A stretch of 64,000 nt of DNA from positions 31,435 to 95,434 of the forward strand of contig CACPON010000001.1 in NCBI GenBank assembly GCA_902635645.1, read 5' to 3'. Every line of letters starts with the position of its first letter. Position 1 is the first letter of the stretch. The notes under the pieces were generated by a model that saw only the letters and a program-made list of their open reading frames with translations, was not told the DNA's origin and did not search any database. Origin of the DNA: an uncultured SAR86 cluster bacterium. GTDB lineage: Bacteria > Pseudomonadota > Gammaproteobacteria > Magnimaribacterales > D2472. Made by a program: the position numbers and the translations under genes. Below, piece by piece: positions 24,394-51,061 of the stretch.

Positions 24394-25029
24394 ATGTTAA
24401 CACTACTAAAAAATTTTTTTACTGTATTGATTCTTTCCTCATCAATTAATCTATGGTCTGATGAAAATCCATACAATTTTATTGACTCTAATGCTCAAAA
24501 GATGGTTATTGTACTAAAAGAAAATAAATCATTATTCTTGGAAGATAGAAAGTTATATGAGCAAAAAATAAAAGAAATTTTTGAGCCAATGATTGATTTT
24601 AGAAGAGTTGCTGCAACTGTTATGGGTAAAAAGTACTACTTAGCCTCATCTAAAGAACAAAGAGCTGAATTTGTAGTAATTTTTAAAGATTCTCTTTTAG
24701 ATACATATGCTGAAACTTTAGCCCAGTGGGAAAACCAAACAATCACTACGATTTTTCCAAAAAATATGGAAATCCAAACTAACAATTTGAAAAATATTGA
24801 GGTACAACAAACTCTTAATACAGGTAGCAGCAAATATCCAATTTCTTATAAGCTCAGAAAAAATAAAGATAACAGCTGGTCAATAGTGAACATAATTGTA
24901 AATGGTGTAAATTTAGGACTAACATTTAGGAATCAGTTTCAAGCCCTAGCAATAAAAAATAATGGAAATATCGAATCTACCCTTAATGGATGGGTTTCTG
25001 ATGCAGGAGATGCTGGAATAAGTGGATAA
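24394..25029 (+). CDS. mlaC: phospholipid-binding periplasmic protein MlaC (Ttg2D family)
   Basis: 211 aa. Signal peptide, NPY..D..AQK N-terminal motif and overall co-linearity with E. coli MlaC. Lies upstream of ibaG-murA. Confidence 0.75.
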   Translation: MLTLLKNFFTVLILSSSINLWSDENPYNFIDSNAQKMVIVLKENKSLFLEDRKLYEQKIKEIFEPMIDFRRVAATVMGKKYYLASSKEQRAEFVVIFKDSLLDTYAETLAQWENQTITTIFPKNMEIQTNNLKNIEVQQTLNTGSSKYPISYKLRKNKDNSWSIVNIIVNGVNLGLTFRNQFQALAIKNNGNIESTLNGWVSDAGDAGISG

Positions 25030-32158: not shown

Positions 32159-32770
32159 ATGATTTTATATTCAGACAGAGATGACCATTATAGCCAAAGA
32201 GTTAGGATTGTATTAGCTGAAAAAGATATTACCGCTGAAATTCATGAGGCTAAACCTGAAGAAACTCCTGAAGATATTCTTTCAATAAGCCCTTATCATA
32301 AGTTACCAATTCTCGTTGATAGAGATCTTGCAATTCATGATCCTTCTGTAATGATGGAATATTTAGACGAAAGGTTTCCACACCCTCCATTGCTTCCTGT
32401 ATATCCGGTGGCAAGGGCAAACAGCAGAACGTTAATGTTACGTATAGACAGAGAATGGTGTCCAATTGTAGACACATTAATAGCAGGCGAGCTTCCCGAA
32501 AAAGAGTTATTAAAGCTGAGAGAAGAGCTCTTGCATGAAATATCTTCAATTGCTCCAACTTTTAAAGAATTCAAGTTTTTTATGAGCGATGAGTTTACTC
32601 TTGTAGATTGTTGCTTTGCACCTATTCTATGGAGACTTCCTTCTATCGGCATTAAGCTTCCTGTCAACAGACACCTAAAACCTCTCTTAGATTATCAGAA
32701 AGAAGTATTTAAAAGACCTGGATTTTTAGATAGTTTATCTTCCCTTGAGAGGGATCTTAAAGAGGATTAG
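32159..32770 (+). CDS. sspA: stringent starvation protein A (GST-like)
   Basis: 203 aa GST fold. Co-linear with SspA (YSQRVRIVLAEK, ERFPHPPLLPVYPV). Position after rpsI/petABC as in Pseudomonas. Confidence 0.88.
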   Translation: MILYSDRDDHYSQRVRIVLAEKDITAEIHEAKPEETPEDILSISPYHKLPILVDRDLAIHDPSVMMEYLDERFPHPPLLPVYPVARANSRTLMLRIDREWCPIVDTLIAGELPEKELLKLREELLHEISSIAPTFKEFKFFMSDEFTLVDCCFAPILWRLPSIGIKLPVNRHLKPLLDYQKEVFKRPGFLDSLSSLERDLKED

Positions 32771-33722
32771 TTGTATCCGGAGATACGTTCCATAAAGGAA
32801 GATTTCTATTTATACATTGTCCTTTTGAGACTTTTGAAATTCCTGTGTTAAACATCATATTAATGTTGCTAATATTACTTTGATATATCCCTTCAGCTAA
32901 AATAAGGTCTTCAATCAAAGCCTTATTCAACTCATCTTCAATACTTTTAATATCTTTATTTAATGAAATTTTTTCAAAAAGGTAATTTGGTACAGGAATT
33001 ATTACATTTTCAAAATCATTAAATTCTTTTAATGAAGATGCTCCCATTAATAGTTCAGTAGTTGAATAAAATTCAGTACTTATTAAGTAACTTCTAAAAA
33101 TTGGAACAAGACTTTTACCAATATCATAGTCAGTTAAGAAAAAGATCTTATTAAAATCTTTTCTTTCTCTTGGGTTATGATTAATAGTGATATTTCTATC
33201 CAATGATTCCAAACCATTCAGCCTTTTCAAGCTTGATTCAATTCCAGTAATTTGTTGCGAGAAGGCATCAAGATTATTATCTATTAAAAAAAATTTAACT
33301 TCAGGATATTTATCTTCTAAAGTATCTATTCTATTTTTATATTCATTGCTGAATGCAACTATAAGCTTTTCTCTAGAATTATTATTATAAAAAAGTATGT
33401 TTTCGAGTTGATATAATTGATCATCTAAAAAACTATTACAAAAAAATGAAAGATTAGATTCTGTTAATCTATCTTTAAGCTTTTTTCCATTTTCATCAAA
33501 AACAATATTAAATTTATAGTCTGATTCTAATAACGAAGATATAAAATATTCTTTATTCTTATCATTTATTAAATAATTTAATTTTAATTCAGTCCTGCTT
33601 AAAGTTTCTCTAATGTCATTTTCAGTTAAAAAATTTTTCTTGAAATTATTATTAGATCCAGCACAGCTTGTAAGAGCAGCTAATAAAAATACTGTAATAA
33701 ATGTTAAGCTTTGTTTAAACAT
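32757..33722 (-). CDS. lpoA: LpoA-like lipoprotein (short; C-terminal-domain-like only)
   Basis: Start moved to the ATG at 33722, giving MFKQSLTFITVFLLAALTSC with lipobox LTSC. Divergent from rsmI, as lpoA/yraM is. The C-terminal half resembles the LpoA C-domain (..RKDFNKIFFLTDYDIGKSLVPIFRSY..). Confidence 0.5.
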   Translation of the reverse strand: MFKQSLTFITVFLLAALTSCAGSNNNFKKNFLTENDIRETLSRTELKLNYLINDKNKEYFISSLLESDYKFNIVFDENGKKLKDRLTESNLSFFCNSFLDDQLYQLENILFYNNNSREKLIVAFSNEYKNRIDTLEDKYPEVKFFLIDNNLDAFSQQITGIESSLKRLNGLESLDRNITINHNPRERKDFNKIFFLTDYDIGKSLVPIFRSYLISTEFYSTTELLMGASSLKEFNDFENVIIPVPNYLFEKISLNKDIKSIEDELNKALIEDLILAEGIYQSNISNINMMFNTGISKVSKGQCINRNLPLWNVSPDTTNPL

Positions 33723-33739
33723 ATTTAATTTTTTAATAA

Positions 33740-34564
33740 ATGTTAAATTTAATTTCAACACCAATAGGTAATTTAAATGATATATCACTTAGAGCAATTG
33801 AAGCTCTAAAAAGTGCAGATTATATTTTTGCAGAAGATACAAGAAATGCAAAAAAATTATTAAATTTTATTGATTGTAGATCGAAATGTTCTTCTTTTCA
33901 TGAACACAATGAAAGGAAGGTTACTAATCTTATTGTTAAAAAACTTATTGAAGATCAAAACTTAGAAATAGTAATTATCAGTGATGCAGGTACACCAGCA
34001 ATATCTGATCCTGGATATCACCTAATACAAGAATGTATAAAGCACAAAATTAATTTTAGCCACATTCCAGGACCATCTTCAATAATCAATGCAGTTGTTT
34101 TATCAGGACTTCCAACATCAAGTTTTATTTTTTTAGGTTTTGTACCCAAAAAGAAGAATCAAAAAGTTGAATTTATAAGGTCTTTAAAGAAATACTCTGA
34201 AACAATAATTCTTTTTGAATCTGGAAAAAGACTCCCTGAAACAATTCAATATTTGTTTGAAGAGCACCCTCAACATAATAAGATTTCATTGTGTCGAGAA
34301 ATGACTAAAATTCATGAAACCATAGAGAGAGGATCGATAGAGTCAATAAAAGAAAAAATTAATAGTGATGAATTAGTTTTAAAAGGTGAGTTTGTCATTG
34401 TGATAGAAGGCAGCTCTGTAGAATTTAAAAATACAAAATTAGATAAAAAAATACAAAAAGCATTTTTAGAGAATATGCCACCAAAAGATGCGGCAAAGCT
34501 TATATCCATGATTACTAAAGAAAATAAAAGAGATGTTTATAAACAATTGTTAGAACTTGATTAG
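33740..34564 (+). CDS. rsmI: 16S rRNA (cytidine1402-2'-O)-methyltransferase
   Basis: 274 aa. N-terminus LISTPIGNLNDISLRAIEALKSADYIFAEDTR and tetrapyrrole-methylase-like fold. Confidence 0.9.
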   Translation: MLNLISTPIGNLNDISLRAIEALKSADYIFAEDTRNAKKLLNFIDCRSKCSSFHEHNERKVTNLIVKKLIEDQNLEIVIISDAGTPAISDPGYHLIQECIKHKINFSHIPGPSSIINAVVLSGLPTSSFIFLGFVPKKKNQKVEFIRSLKKYSETIILFESGKRLPETIQYLFEEHPQHNKISLCREMTKIHETIERGSIESIKEKINSDELVLKGEFVIVIEGSSVEFKNTKLDKKIQKAFLENMPPKDAAKLISMITKENKRDVYKQLLELD

Positions 34565-34589
34565 CATCTATCTAAAAACTATTTATAAT
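34561..34589 (+). promoter_or_regulatory. candidate rnpB promoter
   Basis: TTAGCA (34561-34566), 17-nt spacer, perfect TATAAT (34584-34589). This places +1 about 7 nt downstream, at the G (34596) that begins the P1 stem. Confidence 0.4.
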
Positions 34590-34595
34590 AGCCAC

Positions 34596-34928
34596 GAGTT
34601 GGTTGGATGATCGCTAACCTAGTTAGAGGAAAGTCCGGACTTCATAGAGCAGGGCGCCAGGTAACACCTGGGAGACGTGAGTCTACGGAAAGTGCAACAG
34701 AAAGTATACCGCCAATATTTTTGGTAAGGGTGAAATGGTGAGGTAAGAGCTCACCGCTTAAGTGGAGACAGTTAAGGCATTGTAAACCCCAGCCCGAAGC
34801 AAGACCAAATAGAAATCCTTTTAAGTTGCTCGCTTAGGATTTGGGTAGGTTGCTAGAATATTGTGGCAACACAGTATCAAGATAGATGATCATCTTTTAC
34901 AGAATCCGGCTTATAGACCAACTCAACT
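34596..34928 (+). ncRNA. rnpB: RNase P RNA, bacterial type A
   Basis: Universally conserved blocks GAGGAAAGTCCGGAC (P4 5' strand), AGGGTGAAATGGTGAGGTAAGAGCTCACC, and ACAGAATCCGGCTTA (P4 3' strand). The 5' GAGTTGGT pairs with the 3' ACCAACTC as P1. About 330 nt. Ends are +/- a few nt. Confidence 0.9.
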
Positions 34929-34949
34929 TTTTAAATCATCTATTATATG

Positions 34950-34984
34950 GTGTGAAAAAGTGTGTAAATGTGTTGCAAAGTGTG
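34950..34984 (+). promoter_or_regulatory. four direct GTGTG/GTGTT repeats at exact 10-bp phasing; putative MraZ operator
   Basis: GTGTGaaaaaGTGTGtaaatGTGTTgcaaaGTGTG. Repeats start at 34950, 34960, 34970 and 34980, and the last ends 24 nt before the mraZ ATG. Possible overlapping promoter: TTGCAA (34973-34978), 17 nt, TATATT (34996-35001). Confidence 0.55.
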
Positions 34985-35008
34985 TAAAAAGGCTATATAT
35001 TTTAATCC

Positions 35009-35476
35009 ATGTATGGTTTTAACACAGTTTCACTTGATCAAAAGGGTAGATTAGCAATTCCTGCTAAATATCGGACCAGTTTTATTCAAAAAAATGAAAC
35101 TCAAATTGTTATAACCAAAGATCCACAATACCCATCATTAAAAATATATCCTCAGTCTCAATGGTTAGAAATTTCATCAAAATTAGAATCTCTTCAAGGG
35201 CTTGACCCAATTGTAAGAAACCTTCAGTGGACTATTTTAGGCAATGCAAGTGTTACGGAATTTGATCCAAAGGGGAGAATGCTAGTCTTAATTCCATCTG
35301 AATTAAGAAAGTATGCAGAATTGATTGATGAAAAGCAGATCTCATTAATTGGTATGGGTAATAAGTTTGAAATATGGAATGTTTCTAACTGGGAAATGAG
35401 ACAAACAGGTGGATCACTAGCAACTGAAATTTTAGATGTAGTTCTTCCAGAGAGCATTAAATCAATGTCTTTTTAA
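35009..35476 (+). CDS. mraZ: transcriptional regulator MraZ
   Basis: 155 aa. Duplicated SpoVT/AbrB-like halves each carrying the D.KGR motif (LDQKGRLAIP and FDPKGRMLV). Confidence 0.93.
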   Translation: MYGFNTVSLDQKGRLAIPAKYRTSFIQKNETQIVITKDPQYPSLKIYPQSQWLEISSKLESLQGLDPIVRNLQWTILGNASVTEFDPKGRMLVLIPSELRKYAELIDEKQISLIGMGNKFEIWNVSNWEMRQTGGSLATEILDVVLPESIKSMSF

Positions 35477-35488
35477 TAGGGGATAAAA

Positions 35489-36598
35489 ATGAATTTTGAA
35501 GTAATAGGGCAAGCAGTAGAAAACGCAAAGATTAAAGTTGTCGGTGTAGGGGGCGCTGGTGGAAATGCTGTTATTCATATGATTAATCATAATATTGAAG
35601 GAGTAGATTTTATTTGTGCTAATACAGATACTCAGGCTCTTTCAATGGCCGATGGAGCAATAACATTAAAACTTGGTAATGGTTTGACAAAAGGGCTTGG
35701 AGCTGGAGCAAATCCAGATGTTGGAAGAAAAGCTGCTGAAAGCGATAGAGCTGCAATAGAAGAATTATTAGTTGGAGCTGATATGATTTTTATAACTGCC
35801 GGCATGGGCGGTGGAACCGGAACTGGAGCAGCCCCGGTAGTTGCATCTATTGCTAAAGATTTGGGAGCACTTACAGTTGCTGTTGTTACAAAGCCGTTTA
35901 AATTTGAAGGTAAAAAAAGAATGACTGCAGCTGAAAAAGGATTAGCTGCTCTTGTTGAAGAGGTTGACAGTCTTGTAACCATCCCCAATCAAAAGTTATA
36001 TGAGATTTTGGGTGAAGATACAGCGATGCAGGATGCATTTGCTAAAGCAGATGATGTACTGAAAGGAGCTGTTCAAGGCATATCAGATATCATCTTAAAA
36101 AAAGGACATATCAATGTCGATTTTGCTGATGTAAAAACTGTTATGTCTGAAAAAGGCATTGCAATGATGGGTACAGGAAGAGCAAGTGGCAAAAATAGAG
36201 CAGAAGCTGCAGCTACTCAAGCTGTAAGAAGTGAATTACTTGAAGATATAAATCTAAAAAATGCAAGAGGCGTCTTAGTTAATATTACTGCAGCAAAACC
36301 AACATTGGGTGATCAGGCAGAGGTTGCTGATATTGTAGAAGAAATTGTTCATGAGGATGCAAATATAATTTATGGACTTGTATATGATGATTCAGTAAAA
36401 GATGATTTGCTGGTAACTATCGTGGCAACTGGTGTTGACCAAAGAGCTCCAAAACTAGTTATCGATAATCAGCCATCAATGCAATTAAATCCCGTTGGAT
36501 TGAATAAAGAACAAACAAGTCAAAAAGGTGGCACATCGTCTGCAGCGGAAATTGATTTCCTTGATGTGCCAACTTTTATGAGAAAGCAAGTAGATTAA
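35489..36598 (+). CDS. ftsZ: cell division protein FtsZ
   Basis: 369 aa. GVGGAGGNAV, tubulin signature GMGGGTGTGAAPVVA, NTDTQAL, and conserved C-terminal peptide DFLDVPTFMRKQVD. Confidence 0.97.
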   Translation: MNFEVIGQAVENAKIKVVGVGGAGGNAVIHMINHNIEGVDFICANTDTQALSMADGAITLKLGNGLTKGLGAGANPDVGRKAAESDRAAIEELLVGADMIFITAGMGGGTGTGAAPVVASIAKDLGALTVAVVTKPFKFEGKKRMTAAEKGLAALVEEVDSLVTIPNQKLYEILGEDTAMQDAFAKADDVLKGAVQGISDIILKKGHINVDFADVKTVMSEKGIAMMGTGRASGKNRAEAAATQAVRSELLEDINLKNARGVLVNITAAKPTLGDQAEVADIVEEIVHEDANIIYGLVYDDSVKDDLLVTIVATGVDQRAPKLVIDNQPSMQLNPVGLNKEQTSQKGGTSSAAEIDFLDVPTFMRKQVD

Positions 36599-36599
36599 G

Positions 36600-37493
36600 A
36601 TGCTGCATTTTCCAGTCTTGCTGGAAGAGTCAGTAGATTTTCTAGTTAACAAGAAAGAAGGCAGCTATATAGATTGCACTTATGGCCGAGGTGGTCATAC
36701 ACAAAAAATTCTAGATACAATTTCCTCCAAGTCTCAATTAACTTCTTTTGATAAAGATTGTGATGCTATTGAGCATGCAAACAATATTCAAAACACTAAC
36801 TTTAAGATCATTCAAGATTCATTTAGCAATATTAATAAATATTTTAGTAAAGATTCAGTAGATGGAATTCTTTATGATTTGGGCACTTGCTCAACTCATT
36901 TTGATGATGCATCTAGGGGTTTCAGTTTTAGGCATAATGGACCTCTTGATATGAGATTTGATACCAAAAAAGGAAAACCATTAGCGGACTGGATCAATAA
37001 AGCAACTGAAAATGATATTAAGGAAGTTTTATATAAATATGGTGATGAAAAGCATGCAAAGCTGATTTCACGAAATATTGTTGAATATCGAAATCAAAAT
37101 ACTCTTGATTCAACATTGCAGCTTGCAAACCTTATTCAAGATATATATCCAGATAAAAAAAATAAAATTCATCCAGCTACAAAATCATTCCAAGCATTCA
37201 GAATTCATTTAAATGACGAATTAACTGAGCTATCAAGCTCTTTAATTCACGCAAAGAGTTTACTCAAAAAAAATGGAATCGTTGTGGTTATTTCTTTTCA
37301 CTCTTTGGAAGATAATATTGTTAAAAATTTTTTTAAAGCTGAAATAAAAAATTATCCTAAAGACATACCAATAAATAATGAAGAGTTTAAAGAATTTGAA
37401 TGTATTGCAAAAAAGGTAAGGCCATCTGCTAAAGAGATTGAACTAAACAATAGATCAAGAAGTGCAATCATGAGAGTATTTAAAAAATTATGA
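36600..37493 (+). CDS. rsmH: 16S rRNA (cytosine1402-N4)-methyltransferase
   Basis: 297 aa. HFPVLLEE, DCTYGRGGHT, DLGTCSTHFD, SFHSLED motifs. Confidence 0.93.
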   Translation: MLHFPVLLEESVDFLVNKKEGSYIDCTYGRGGHTQKILDTISSKSQLTSFDKDCDAIEHANNIQNTNFKIIQDSFSNINKYFSKDSVDGILYDLGTCSTHFDDASRGFSFRHNGPLDMRFDTKKGKPLADWINKATENDIKEVLYKYGDEKHAKLISRNIVEYRNQNTLDSTLQLANLIQDIYPDKKNKIHPATKSFQAFRIHLNDELTELSSSLIHAKSLLKKNGIVVVISFHSLEDNIVKNFFKAEIKNYPKDIPINNEEFKEFECIAKKVRPSAKEIELNNRSRSAIMRVFKKL

Positions 37494-43232: not shown

Positions 43233-44258
43233 ATGAAATCTTTAATATATGGTTATGGGGTTACCGGAAAATCTTTCGAAAGATATTTAACTAATAGAAA
43301 TATTCCTTTTGATATTTTTGATGAAAATATAGATCAGCATAATAAAAAGAATAACCTCTCTGATTATCAAACTATATTTTGCAGTCCTGGAATCCCAAAA
43401 GATTTATATGAATCACTTAAACAATACGCTGAGGTTATTACGGATCTTGATATTTTTTTTAAGGAAGATAACTCAATAAAAATAGGCATCACAGGAACAA
43501 ATAGAAAAAGCACAACTTGTTTCCACTTAGAACAACTTATTAGAGAAATAGATACAGTTAATCTTGTTGGTAATATCGGTAATCCAATGCTAGACGTGAT
43601 TAATAATAATAAAACATATTCAATTATAGAGTTATCCAGTTTTCAATTAGATAAGATGAATTTTAATGATTTAGATTATGGGATCCTTTTAAATATAGCA
43701 CCAGATCATTTAGATTATCACGGGTCTTTTGAAGCCTATAAAAGTGCTAAAGAAAAGATACAATCTTCAAAAAATTTCTCAAATGAAAATAATCCATACG
43801 AACTCTTCAGGTGGATAACAGGAAAAGAATCAAAAAAATTAGATCTAAAAAACCTTCCTTATAGGTTTGAAAAAATTACTCCATCGATCATTAATGACTC
43901 AAAATCAACCAACTCTAACTCACTCTTCTTTGCTCTTGAAAATGCTATAAAGTTTTTTGGCTTGAAAAATTTTGTATTAATTGTTTGTGGTGATCCAGCA
44001 AAGGAAAATCATAAATCTCTTAAGATAAATGGACCTGAAGAAATTTTAGTTTATGGGAAGCACAAAAAAGAAATTGATGCATGTTTAGATAACAATAACA
44101 AAAAATTATTTAATACACTTGAAGATATTATTTCATATCTAAAAGATTCAAATAAAAAGAATATTTTATTTTCACCTGGATATCCAAGTGGTAAGGATTA
44201 TAAGAATTTTGAGATTAGGGGAGAGCACTTCAATTCTTGTTTAAACCAAGATGAATAG
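43233..44258 (+). CDS. murD: UDP-N-acetylmuramoylalanine--D-glutamate ligase (unusually short)
   Basis: 341 aa. Co-linear with MurD at the ends (YGYGVTGKS, ELSSFQL, NIAPDHLDYH, INDSKSTN, SPGYPSGKDYKNFEIRGEHF). The P-loop reads GTNRKST. Canonical slot between mraY and ftsW. Confidence 0.8.
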   Translation: MKSLIYGYGVTGKSFERYLTNRNIPFDIFDENIDQHNKKNNLSDYQTIFCSPGIPKDLYESLKQYAEVITDLDIFFKEDNSIKIGITGTNRKSTTCFHLEQLIREIDTVNLVGNIGNPMLDVINNNKTYSIIELSSFQLDKMNFNDLDYGILLNIAPDHLDYHGSFEAYKSAKEKIQSSKNFSNENNPYELFRWITGKESKKLDLKNLPYRFEKITPSIINDSKSTNSNSLFFALENAIKFFGLKNFVLIVCGDPAKENHKSLKINGPEEILVYGKHKKEIDACLDNNNKKLFNTLEDIISYLKDSNKKNILFSPGYPSGKDYKNFEIRGEHFNSCLNQDE

Positions 44259-47802: not shown

Positions 47803-48695
47803 AAAAAATTATTGTCATATGTGGCGGCTCGTCATCAGAAAGAGAAATATCTTTGCAAAGTGGCAAGGGGGTCTATGATGCCCTAAAAAAATTAGGATAT
47901 GAAACAACTATTGTAGATTTTAAAACTATTAGTGATTTCAATATTTTTAAAACGTATGATCTTATTTTTATAGCATTGCATGGGTTTGAGGGTGAAGGAG
48001 GTAATCTCCAAGAAAAATTTGATGATCTATCTATACCTTATACTGGATCAGGGCCAGAAGCTTGCAGAAATACATGGGATAAAAATACATGTAAAACAAT
48101 TTTAAAAGCTCATAATGTTATGACTCCATCATGGAAATATTATGAGACTTTAAAACCATTTTTAAATGAAACTTTCAAAGATTTTCAAAATAAAAACTGT
48201 TTTTTAAAACCAAGTCAAGAAGGCTCAAGCGTTGATATTTTTAAGATAAAAGACGATAAAGATTTTATGGTTGCTCTTAATAATGCAAACAATATAGATA
48301 GACCATTTTTAATGGAAAACTGCATAGATGGAAAAGAGTTTACTGTGACAATTATCAATGATGAATGTATGCCGGTAATAGAAATAGTAACTGAGAATGA
48401 GTTTTATGATTATGATGCAAAATATATCTCAAATAATACAGGGCTTATTGAAGCTAATCTTACTTCTGAGGAACACTTAGCAATAAATGTGGTTGCTTCA
48501 AATGCATATAATGCTCTGAACTGCAGAGGATGGGCACGTATTGATATTCTCCAAGACATCACAGGTCAATTTCATGTTCTTGAAATTAATACCGTTCCAG
48601 GAATGACATCACACAGTTGTGTTCCAAAATCAGGAAGCTTTCTTGGATTAGAATACGAGGAAGTAGTTCAAAATATTATTAATGCAAAACTTTAA
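47790..48695 (+). CDS. ddl: D-alanine--D-alanine ligase
   Basis: Start set at MEEIKKIIVICGGSSSEREISL, which aligns with the DdlB N-terminus. The track ORF 47769 is a 5' extension. ATP-grasp C-terminus EINTVPGMT. Confidence 0.9.
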   Translation: MEEIKKIIVICGGSSSEREISLQSGKGVYDALKKLGYETTIVDFKTISDFNIFKTYDLIFIALHGFEGEGGNLQEKFDDLSIPYTGSGPEACRNTWDKNTCKTILKAHNVMTPSWKYYETLKPFLNETFKDFQNKNCFLKPSQEGSSVDIFKIKDDKDFMVALNNANNIDRPFLMENCIDGKEFTVTIINDECMPVIEIVTENEFYDYDAKYISNNTGLIEANLTSEEHLAINVVASNAYNALNCRGWARIDILQDITGQFHVLEINTVPGMTSHSCVPKSGSFLGLEYEEVVQNIINAKL

Positions 48696-49314
48696 AAAAA
48701 CCTTTTACGCCTTAATAGTATTCTGTTTTACTGGATCAGTTTTTTCAAAAGGTTTAAATATTGATATTTCGCTAGATTCAGAAATATATTTAAAGTCTCA
48801 AAAAATATTCATTGAAAAATTAGGTGAATTAAAGACAAAGAATGATATTAAAGATTTACTTGAGGAGCAGGACTGGATAGATGAGTACTTTATAAATGTT
48901 AAACCATTTAGTAATTCTGCAAAATTAAATATAAAAACAAGAACACCAATATTTATATTAAATAATGAATTTTTTGTAGATACCAATTTAAAAAAGTTTA
49001 AATTTGATAAAACTTTTCTTAATTTGATTTCTGTAAATGGACCCATAGAAGATTTGAAAGAGCCGCTTAATATTATTAATTTTTTTAAAGTGAATAATTT
49101 TGATAATACTAATATAGTAAAAATTACCTATTCACATATTTCAGGATGGCAGATTCAAACGAATTTACATGTCATAATGATTGGCAATAAACTTTCAAAT
49201 AATAAATTTAATTCATTAAAAGATACCTTAAATTACTTGTACGAAAATAGAAAAATTCCTAGTATGATAGATTTAAGGTATAAGGATGGAGTTGCTTTAG
49301 ATTATGGCAAATAA
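48682..49314 (+). CDS. ftsQ: cell division protein FtsQ (short)
   Basis: 210 aa. N-terminal TM then a POTRA-like region. Canonical slot between ddl and ftsA. Confidence 0.7.
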   Translation: MQNFKKTFYALIVFCFTGSVFSKGLNIDISLDSEIYLKSQKIFIEKLGELKTKNDIKDLLEEQDWIDEYFINVKPFSNSAKLNIKTRTPIFILNNEFFVDTNLKKFKFDKTFLNLISVNGPIEDLKEPLNIINFFKVNNFDNTNIVKITYSHISGWQIQTNLHVIMIGNKLSNNKFNSLKDTLNYLYENRKIPSMIDLRYKDGVALDYGK

Positions 49315-50530
49315 TGGTAAAAATTCTAATATAGTTGTTGGCTTAGATATAGGTACTTCCAAAGTAGTTTGTATTGTAGGTAAATATAATGAAGCTCAAA
49401 AACTAGAAATAATCTCACTCGGTGCATACCCATCAAGCGGCTTAAAAAAAGGAGTGGTTGTAAATATTGATGCTACTACTGATGCAATTAAAAAGGCCGT
49501 AGAACAAGCTCAATCGATGATTGAGGATAAGATCCGATCTGTATATGTAGGCATTGCTGGCAGTCACATTAAAAGTCTTAATTCTCAAGGTGCTGTAGGC
49601 ATTAAAGATAAAGAAGTTACACCTTATGATATTGACAGAGTTATTGATTCTGCTCAGGCAGTATCAATTCCATCTGATCAAAATGTTTTGCATGTCCTTC
49701 CTCAAGAGTACGTGATTGATGGTCAAGAAGTTAGCTTGGACCCGCTTGGAATGGCTGGGGTGAGGCTTGAAGCAAAGGTTCATTTGGTTACATGTGCTAA
49801 CAGCGCAGTAAAAAATATAGAAAAATGTATAAGAAATTGTGGCCTATCTGTTGATGGTTTTGTTTTAGAGCAATTAGCAAGTTCTCATTCTATTCTCTCT
49901 GAAGATGAAAAAGATTTGGGAGTATGTTTGGTTGACATTGGTGGAGGTACTACCGACATAGCAATATTTAATTCTGGCTCAATAGTTTTTACTGGAGTAA
50001 TACCTATTGCTGGTGACCAGGTAACTAGCGATATAGCGCAAGCGTTGAGAACTCCGACACCTCAGGCCGAGGATATAAAACAAAAACACGGTTGTGCAGT
50101 GGCTGAGTTCACAAAAGATGATGAAAGTATTGAAGTTCCTGGTGTAGGAGGAAGACCAACAAGAGAACTCTCAAGAAGCTCTCTAGCAGATATTATTCAA
50201 CCTAGGTATACAGAGTTATTTGAGCTTGTTAAGGCAGAAATTACGAGAAACGGATTTGAGGATAAGATTTCTGCTGGTATTGTTTTCACAGGCGGGACAT
50301 CGAAAATGGAAGGTGTAGTTGAATTAGCAGAATCTATTTTTCAGACATCTGTAAGACTAGGTATTCCAAATAAATTCTCTGGAATGGAAAGTATTTTGCA
50401 AAATCCAATCTACGCAACATCCATTGGATTGGTTGATCATGGTTTTAAGCAGAAAAATGATGATTTAATAGCTGAGCAAAATCAAAGTTGGCTTTCCAAG
50501 CTTTTAAAGATAGTTAAAAGCGAGTATTGA
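49304..50530 (+). CDS. ftsA: cell division protein FtsA
   Basis: 408 aa actin-fold protein. [22 protein letters not shown]-terminal amphipathic helix (WLSKLLKIVKSEY). Confidence 0.93.
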   Translation: MANNGKNSNIVVGLDIGTSKVVCIVGKYNEAQKLEIISLGAYPSSGLKKGVVVNIDATTDAIKKAVEQAQSMIEDKIRSVYVGIAGSHIKSLNSQGAVGIKDKEVTPYDIDRVIDSAQAVSIPSDQNVLHVLPQEYVIDGQEVSLDPLGMAGVRLEAKVHLVTCANSAVKNIEKCIRNCGLSVDGFVLEQLASSHSILSEDEKDLGVCLVDIGGGTTDIAIFNSGSIVFTGVIPIAGDQVTSDIAQALRTPTPQAEDIKQKHGCAVAEFTKDDESIEVPGVGGRPTRELSRSSLADIIQPRYTELFELVKAEITRNGFEDKISAGIVFTGGTSKMEGVVELAESIFQTSVRLGIPNKFSGMESILQNPIYATSIGLVDHGFKQKNDDLIAEQNQSWLSKLLKIVKSEY

Positions 50531-50611
50531 TTCTACATATCAATTCCATTAGAATGCGCATTCCTTGGTTTGCATCAATTAAGAAGCAAATCTTTAACCA
50601 TAAGGTAGCAA

Positions 50612-51061
50612 ATGAAAAAGTACGAAGCAGTAATAGTTCTTAACCCCAACCTTTCTTCTAAGGTTGATAACTTTAAAAAAGATTTTGAGAAGCTATTAAA
50701 AGATAATTCTTTTAATATTGTGAAAACAGAAGATATTGGAAGAAGACAATTAGCATATTCAATAGCTAATCATAATAAAGGCCACTATATTTTATTTAAC
50801 CTTGAAGGTGACCCTTCTAAATTATTAGAAATAGAAACAAAAATTAAATATAACGAATCCATCATTAGGCATTTATTTTTAGTTGTAAAAGAACACAACG
50901 GAGAAGATTCAAGCCTCTTTGTTGAATCAAAGAACAAAAAACCTGAACCGTCTGAAGTTGAGAAAGATAAAGAAGACGTTAAGAAAGATCCTGAGCCAGT
51001 AAAAGAGGATGTCGAAGATAAATCAGAAGCTAAACAAGAAGAAGGTGAAGATAATGAGTAA
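50612..51061 (+). CDS. rpsF: 30S ribosomal protein S6 (long acidic/Lys-rich C-terminal tail)
   Basis: 149 aa. [12 protein letters not shown].., GRRQLAYSI core, followed by a tail of about 45 aa rich in E/D/K/P. Confidence 0.92.

Follow-up and report, generated by a model that had tools for sequence, protein, structure and literature searches.

Genes and features of the mraZ locus

The window, i.e. the whole 64-kb stretch of DNA that was analysed, belongs to a marine gammaproteobacterium of the SAR86 clade and carries mraZ on its plus strand between the gene for RNase P RNA and ftsZ, and the remainder of the dcw cluster follows further downstream. The genes that frame the region of interest are:

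34595 to 34929, plus strand: rnpB (RNase P RNA), the upstream neighbour (Rfam RNaseP_bact_a, 318.6 bits)
35009 to 35476, plus strand: mraZ, 155 aa, the presumed cognate regulator (Pfam MraZ, E = 3e-20)
35489 to 36598, plus strand: ftsZ, the second gene of the operon (Pfam Tubulin and FtsZ_C; NCBIfam ftsZ equivalog, 394.7 bits)
36600 to 37493, plus strand: rsmH (mraW), the third gene, after which the rest of the dcw cluster follows
49304 to 50530, plus strand: ftsA, at the end of the dcw cluster (profile matches)

Upstream of rnpB lie rsmI and then an ORF on the opposite strand (32757-33788, minus strand, 343 aa), located just upstream of rsmI, for which no Pfam or NCBIfam match was found. A good sigma-70-like site, TTAGCA-17-TATAAT at 34561-34589 on the plus strand, agrees with the consensus at 10 of 12 positions. 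It overlaps the stop codon of rsmI, ends 5 nt before the start of rnpB and presumably represents the rnpB promoter. On the other side of the locus, mraZ and ftsZ are separated by only 12 nt, which include a GGGGA Shine-Dalgarno (SD) sequence for ftsZ, and the genes downstream of ftsZ overlap or abut. A scan of the plus strand called no promoter-like or terminator-like sites within mraZ, the mraZ-ftsZ gap or the rest of the operon. Since the short gap contains neither a promoter nor a terminator, it is reasonable to infer that ftsZ is co-regulated with mraZ, in agreement with the suggestion of the first-pass annotation of this DNA that MraZ would gate ftsZ as the next gene.

A four-box direct-repeat array upstream of mraZ

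The 79-bp gap between rnpB and mraZ contains an array of short direct repeats, which ends 24 nt 5' of the mraZ start codon and spans positions -59 to -25 relative to the ATG:

34950 to 34984, plus strand: the whole MraZ-type four-box direct-repeat array, reading GTGTGaaaaaGTGTGtaaatGTGTTgcaaaGTGTG (shuffle test and cross-species identity)
34950 to 34954, plus strand: box 1, GTGTG; G, T and G invariant in 33 distinct arrays with 10/10/10 spacing, upstream context variable
34960 to 34964, plus strand: box 2, GTGTG, with AAA in front (AAAGTGTG); AAAAGTGTG invariant in the 33 distinct arrays
34970 to 34974, plus strand: box 3, GTGTT, the weakest box, overlapping a putative -35 hexamer
34980 to 34984, plus strand: box 4, GTGTG, with AAA in front (AAAGTGTG); near-constant distance to the ATG

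With box starts at 34950, 34960, 34970 and 34980 the array has an exact period of 10 bp, and it comprises three copies of GTGTG and one of GTGTT within the consecutive 10-bp units gtgtgaaaaa, gtgtgtaaat, gtgttgcaaa and gtgtgtaaaa. The first-pass annotation had described four repeats with 10-bp phasing in front of mraZ and ftsZ, two of them sharing a more extended sequence, and had placed them between rnpB and mraZ. Our analysis confirmed the four repeats as GTGTG/GTGTG/GTGTT/GTGTG, traced the extended sequence to boxes 2 and 4, both of which read AAAGTGTG, and found the location to be borne out by the coordinates of the Rfam rnpB and Pfam MraZ matches.

The array is unique within the window. 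The pattern GTGTK-N5 repeated four times gave a single match without mismatches in the 64 kb when both strands were considered, and none in 100 dinucleotide-preserving shuffles of the window. GTGTG itself is under-represented, with 19 copies observed on both strands compared to 38 expected, and three of these 19 copies reside in the array. The less stringent two-box pattern GTGTK-N5-GTGTK had no second site in the window outside the array, and the 141 matches to this pattern that were obtained were all located inside the operator regions of related loci, with none outside the mraZ operators in 557 kb of related SAR86 loci. Additional MraZ sites, as would be expected for a regulon, were therefore rejected, since neither the window nor the 557 kb of related loci contained any other two-box or three-box array. 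The other apparent intergenic gaps that were inspected in the window were filled by ORFs.

Conservation of the array across SAR86

Relatives were collected by a scan for the MraZ protein using one genome per GTDB species, which resulted in 80 loci (L001-L080), nearly all of them labelled as SAR86 cluster, and the 90 nt upstream of mraZ were compared among the resulting 81 sequences, i.e. the window and these loci. The MraZ proteins encoded by the 80 loci ranged from 99% down to 68% identity to that of the window, and the array was present in every one of the 81 sequences, always with box 4 at -28 to -33 from the mraZ ATG and with a distance of 10 bp from box 1 to box 2. The distance from box 2 to box 4 was found in two forms. 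In 46 sequences it is 20 bp, as in the window, and box 3 reads GTGTT or ATGTT, while in 35 sequences it is 21 bp due to a 1-nt insertion and box 3 is degenerate (ATGTT, GTATT or TGTAG). Conservation of repeat number and phasing in relatives, which had been named earlier as a check on the operator assignment, was thus observed throughout, with a variation of 10 or 11 bp around box 3. MraZ seems to tolerate this 1-nt shift in phase, comparable to the outcome of spacer experiments with M. genitalium, and the 81 species can be regarded as a natural mutagenesis series in which both the degeneration of box 3 and the insertion of one nucleotide between boxes 2 and 4 have been tolerated.

The degree of conservation was quantified in 30 species that share the spacing of the window but whose MraZ is less than 80% identical at the amino acid level, with the window as the reference. 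In these divergent species the 35-bp array was 94.8% identical to that of the window, compared to 30% over the 20-nt flank on its 5' side and 31% at the 4-fold degenerate sites of mraZ. The contrast between the array on the one hand and the flank and the saturated 4-fold degenerate sites on the other indicates strong purifying selection on a site that is specific to mraZ. Among the 33 distinct arrays of the window type, each box had essentially invariant G, T and G positions, and the same was true for most spacer positions. The A-rich spacers AAAAA, TAAAT, GCAAA and TAAAAA occur in phase and are conserved like the box cores.

The MraZ protein

MraZ is among the most conserved bacterial regulators, and the gene directly 3' of the array encodes this SpoVT/AbrB-type regulator. 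The mraZ product matched Pfam PF02381 in two stretches with 72.4 bits (cutoff 23), scored 96.8 bits with TIGR00242, which is approximately 1.5 bits below the cutoff of 98.35, and could be aligned to the M. genitalium MraZ structures, with E = 4e-7 for the MraZ chains in the PDB. Two DXXXR motifs are present in the window protein, D10-Q-K12-G-R14 and D86-P-K-G-R90. The residues D10, K12, R14 and R90 were invariant in the 81 MraZ sequences, and the protein was intact with a length of 155 aa in all of them.

A SAR86 lineage with divergent boxes was also found (L032, L042-L044, L051, L056, L063, L067, L068 and L072), in which the array reads GTGTT/GTGCG/GTATT/GTGCG with a spacing of 10/11/10. The MraZ of this lineage carries E in place of D86, except in L068, where the residue is K, and has D-K-K-S-R-F as its first motif. 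The occurrence of divergent boxes together with a divergent MraZ may represent co-variation of protein and operator, which in a single lineage is confounded with phylogeny.

Comparison with known MraZ sites

The published consensus of the MraZ box is GTG(G/T) with 6-nt spacers, usually present in three copies (PMC12957436). Four boxes with the sequence AAAGTGT-N3 are found in M. genitalium, for which cryo-EM structures indicated that K13, R15 and R86 read the TGT/G bases (PMC12957436). The SAR86 array shares the number of four boxes and the 10-bp period with the sites of M. genitalium and M. gallisepticum (PMC12957436; Fisunov et al., 2016). In addition, the extended Mycoplasma box AAAGTGT(G/T) is identical to SAR86 boxes 2 and 4 and in several SAR86 species to all four boxes, the equivalents of K13, R15 and R86 are conserved in SAR86 MraZ, and both groups have AT-rich, streamlined genomes with ftsZ near mraZ. 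However, Mycoplasma belongs to a different phylum, its gene order is mraZ-mraW-ftsA*-ftsZ as opposed to mraZ-ftsZ-rsmH in SAR86, and in M. genitalium transcription starts inside box 1, which places the boxes downstream of the -10 element (PMC12957436), unlike the arrangement at the putative SAR86 promoter described below.

In E. coli three GTGGG/TGGGN direct repeats have been described in the mraZ promoter Pmra (Eraso et al., 2014, as cited in PMC7761207). The coding strand of E. coli K-12 Pmra reads TTGACA-18-TAAACT-cctttca-GTGGGaaattGTGGGgcaaaGTGGG-19 nt-ATG and, similar to SAR86, has its boxes just 5' of mraZ with a 10-bp period and a GTG core. In a MAFFT alignment the three E. coli GTGGG boxes were paired with boxes 2-4 of SAR86, and the GCAAA spacer is the same in both. 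The distance from the last box to the ATG is also similar, with 19 nt in E. coli and 24 nt in the window. In contrast to the four SAR86 boxes with a GTGT core, E. coli has three with a GTGG core. Furthermore, the E. coli boxes are situated downstream of the -10 element in a leader that contains an SD sequence, whereas the best candidate promoter in SAR86 lies within or downstream of the array and no SD sequence is present, and in E. coli ftsZ is located 14 genes away but in SAR86 it directly follows mraZ. The differences from E. coli are the fourth box, the GTGT core, which equals the Mollicutes consensus, and above all the relocation of ftsZ, together with a probable loss of the SD-containing leader.

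Similar arrays have been characterised in two further organisms. In B. cenocepacia four 7-nt repeats with 3-nt spacers are contained in a fragment that is shifted by MraZ in EMSA, and Pmra drives the whole dcw operon (PMC7761207). As in SAR86, this is a proteobacterial four-repeat array with a 10-bp period located 5' of mraZ, but it lies 3' of the -10 element, where it overlaps with the start of transcription, and a 100-nt leader comes after it, while in SAR86 the distance from the putative -10 element to the mraZ ATG is no more than 8 nt. In B. subtilis the triple repeat GTGG[A/T]G is unique in the genome, repression by MraZ needs both DXXXR motifs, and the repeats were removed when the -35/-10 region was swapped (bioRxiv 10.1101/2022.02.09.479790). 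The latter observation suggests that the B. subtilis repeats are embedded in the promoter, like those proposed here for SAR86, although B. subtilis has three boxes instead of four, a GTGG core and ftsZ in the canonical distal position. Arrays of four boxes already have precedents in Mycoplasma and Burkholderia, and the B. subtilis data imply boxes that are embedded in the promoter. In E. coli, B. subtilis and M. genitalium MraZ represses through such boxes (PMC12957436; bioRxiv 10.1101/2022.02.09.479790).

The SAR86 locus displays all of the sequence-level hallmarks of an MraZ operator, namely the GTG(G/T) core, the 10-bp period, at least three tandem boxes, the position, the conservation and a cognate MraZ. 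The identification of the array as the MraZ operator, as put forward by the first-pass annotation, is supported at this level by the match to the consensus, the presence in all 81 sequences, the exclusive association with mraZ and the intact MraZ protein, and it appears very likely that MraZ binds the array.

A putative promoter embedded in the array

A promoter scan revealed a candidate sigma-70 promoter that overlaps the 3' part of the array:

34973 to 34978, plus strand: putative -35 hexamer TTGCAA (promoter scan; conservation perhaps derived from the operator)
34996 to 35001, plus strand: putative -10 hexamer TATATT, with 7 nt between it and the mraZ ATG (promoter scan)

This TTGCAA-17-TATATT site (34973-35001) agrees with 9 of the 12 sigma-70 consensus positions. 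Box 3 would then overlap the -35 hexamer, box 4 would fall within the spacer and the UP region would be occupied by boxes 1 and 2, a geometry that resembles that of a repressor site. Since the -10 hexamer ends only 7 nt from the ATG, the leader of the mraZ mRNA would be 0 or 1 nt long. In 61 of the 81 sequences the best sigma-70-like site likewise had a -10 element ending 6-8 nt from the ATG, and the bases in the gap between the -10 element and the ATG vary between species with its length being kept. In contrast, approximately 20 of the 81 species do not have a convincing promoter at the leaderless position. The promoter over repeats 3 and 4 that had been proposed earlier was accordingly recovered by the scan and has an equivalent in most of the relatives, but its assignment stays ambiguous in this last group of species.

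Several observations bear on how this match should be read. The scanned region contained three sigma-70-like sites compared to 5.1 expected from shuffles, so that the match of TTGCAA-17-TATATT alone constitutes weak evidence. Moreover, TTGCAA is composed of box 3 and the GCAAA spacer, and in E. coli GCAAA is not part of the -35 element, which is the TTGACA further upstream. The conservation of TTGCAA can therefore be explained by box 3 and the spacer shared with E. coli, and need not reflect a function as a -35 hexamer. Strong SD pairing (duplex energy <= -4 kcal/mol) was detected for approximately 23% of 61 crude gene calls in the window, and essentially no SD pairing was found before about half of them, which suggests that weak use of SD sequences is general in this genome and makes the missing SD of mraZ uninformative with respect to a leaderless mRNA. 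Among the same 61 gene calls -10-like hexamers were not enriched 5-9 nt before the starts. One gene, at 24394, has a TATAAT that ends 6 nt before its ATG and represents a further leaderless candidate. Overall, we consider the chances to be even that a promoter embedded in the array gives rise to a leaderless mraZ mRNA or one with a 1-nt leader, and of all parts of our interpretation the near-leaderless promoter is the least secure.

Other elements that might be sought in the region were evaluated and rejected. A promoter upstream of box 1, corresponding to the geometry in E. coli and Mycoplasma, was dismissed because, among 79 distinct upstream regions, no -10-like hexamer kept the same offset. 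Such a hexamer is missing altogether upstream of box 1 in many species, and the distance from rnpB to box 1 is only about 11 nt in some. An RNA element at 34900-35030 was discarded, since folding of this segment was no better than that of shuffles (z = -1.43). Likewise, a simple scan of the plus strand yielded no intrinsic terminator between rnpB and mraZ, and only a T-run following the P1 helix of rnpB was seen. This T-run (34928-34932 in the window) lies directly 3' of the helix in most species. In L033 and L041 the 3' end of rnpB is approximately 11 nt from box 1 and has no T-run.

Proposed mechanism and alternative explanations

On the basis of these sequence comparisons we consider it likely that the array is the operator of MraZ, which would act by promoter occlusion in a negative autoregulation of the mraZ-ftsZ transcript. 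By analogy with the M. genitalium cryo-EM structures, an MraZ oligomer would engage the array through as many as four of its subunits, each inserting a cradle motif (D10-x-K12-x-R14 together with R90) into the major groove at one GTGT box. The boxes all face the same side of the helix, and binding would be cooperative. Given the position of the array relative to the start codon, bound MraZ would cover the UP region, the -35 element and the spacer of TTGCAA-17-TATATT, the only conserved sigma-70-like promoter, and this occlusion would shut off mraZ-ftsZ-rsmH-ftsL-ftsI and the later genes. Because ftsZ occupies the second position, an MraZ operator at this site would also set ftsZ transcription.

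The main alternative to an embedded leaderless promoter, which we regard as unlikely, retains the array as the MraZ operator but assumes that mraZ transcription starts upstream, with the rnpB transcript being read through or processed, so that the boxes would lie in a 5' leader. MraZ would then act as a roadblock after initiation, and the block TATATTTT preceding the ATG would function as an A/U-rich region for translation initiation instead of a -10 element. MraZ would block elongation in this case, and negative autoregulation would result either way. Such an arrangement would be consistent with the boxes of E. coli and B. cenocepacia being downstream of the -10 element, with the alignment of the E. 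coli boxes to boxes 2-4 at a similar distance to the ATG, with the simple scan calling no terminator between rnpB and mraZ, and with the approximately 20 of 81 species in which an array-embedded promoter is not recognisable, as well as with the absence of a T-run after rnpB in L033 and L041. However, the T-run directly after the P1 helix in most species argues against read-through, as do the 61 of 81 sequences in which a -10-like hexamer stays at a distance of 6-8 nt to the ATG while the bases in between vary. In addition, a leader of this kind would have no SD sequence at a usable distance, and the RNA of the 34900-35030 segment has no significant structure.

Returning to promoter occlusion by MraZ as the preferred explanation, the effect of MraZ binding is fairly probably repression and not activation. 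Activation by overexpressed MraZ has been reported for M. gallisepticum (as cited in PMC12957436), and boxes 1 and 2, at about -59 and -49 in the UP-element region, could be envisaged as a class I-type activator site that assists a weak promoter with imperfect -35 (TTGCAA) and -10 (TATATT) hexamers. Nevertheless, the -35 hexamer is overlapped by box 3 and the spacer holds box 4, a position typical for repressors, and the MraZ proteins of E. coli, B. subtilis and M. genitalium all repress through boxes of this type, which makes an activating role very unlikely. Finally, the array might be no MraZ site at all and instead represent an intrinsically bent upstream promoter element with phased A-tracts or a site for another regulator that binds direct repeats, for example an OmpR/PhoB-type response regulator, as response regulators also bind direct repeats of 10-11 bp and the A-rich spacers occur in phase and are as conserved as the cores. 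This appears extremely improbable given that the G/T cores do not vary in this AT-rich genome and agree with the MraZ box established by experiment, that the array is found exclusively 5' of mraZ in the window and the 557 kb of related loci, and that the GTGGG repeats 5' of mraZ in E. coli can be aligned to it.

Relocation of ftsZ and its implications

From ftsZ onwards the gene order in the window is rsmH, ftsL, ftsI, murE, murF, mraY, a short murD, ftsW, murG, murC, ddl, an ORF and ftsA. The latter is followed by rpsF and rplI (49304-51061 covers ftsA and rpsF) and not by ftsZ and lpxC. Hence, ftsZ is missing from its canonical place after ftsA and is instead the second gene of the dcw cluster. 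The order rsmI-rnpB-mraZ-ftsZ-rsmH(-ftsL-ftsI) was found in all 80 SAR86 loci, as far as the contigs reach. In every SAR86 species examined, ftsZ has been transferred from the end of the dcw cluster to the second place. A literature search on the gene order of mraZ and ftsZ in SAR86 returned no relevant report of this relocation.

The array itself is what a specialist would expect upstream of mraZ, and the operon context is mildly unusual. The locus extends the rule of GTG(G/T) operators with a 10-bp period to an abundant and poorly cultured marine clade. With ftsZ behind mraZ across the clade, autoregulation by MraZ should reach FtsZ dosage more directly than in model organisms, and the coupling of MraZ and ftsZ would affect how ftsZ levels in SAR86 metatranscriptomes are read as indicators of growth. 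It is conceivable, if rather doubtful when all parts are taken together, that SAR86 has rewired its division control by combining the shift of ftsZ by 14 genes upstream to a place behind mraZ with a promoter embedded in a four-box operator, in place of the SD-containing leader known from E. coli, and a leaderless mraZ mRNA. If true, MraZ and FtsZ would be encoded by the first two cistrons of a single transcript under tight autoregulation, and this would constitute a minimal division-dosage switch characteristic of the streamlined ocean clade SAR86.

Two genes in the distal part of the cluster deviate from the usual pattern. The ORF in the ftsQ position (48682-49314, plus strand, 210 aa) gave no Pfam or NCBIfam match. 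The murD homologue (43233-44258, plus strand) encodes only 341 aa compared to the 441 positions of the profile and scored 182 bits against an NCBIfam cutoff of 212, suggesting that part of the usual C-terminal region is apparently missing.
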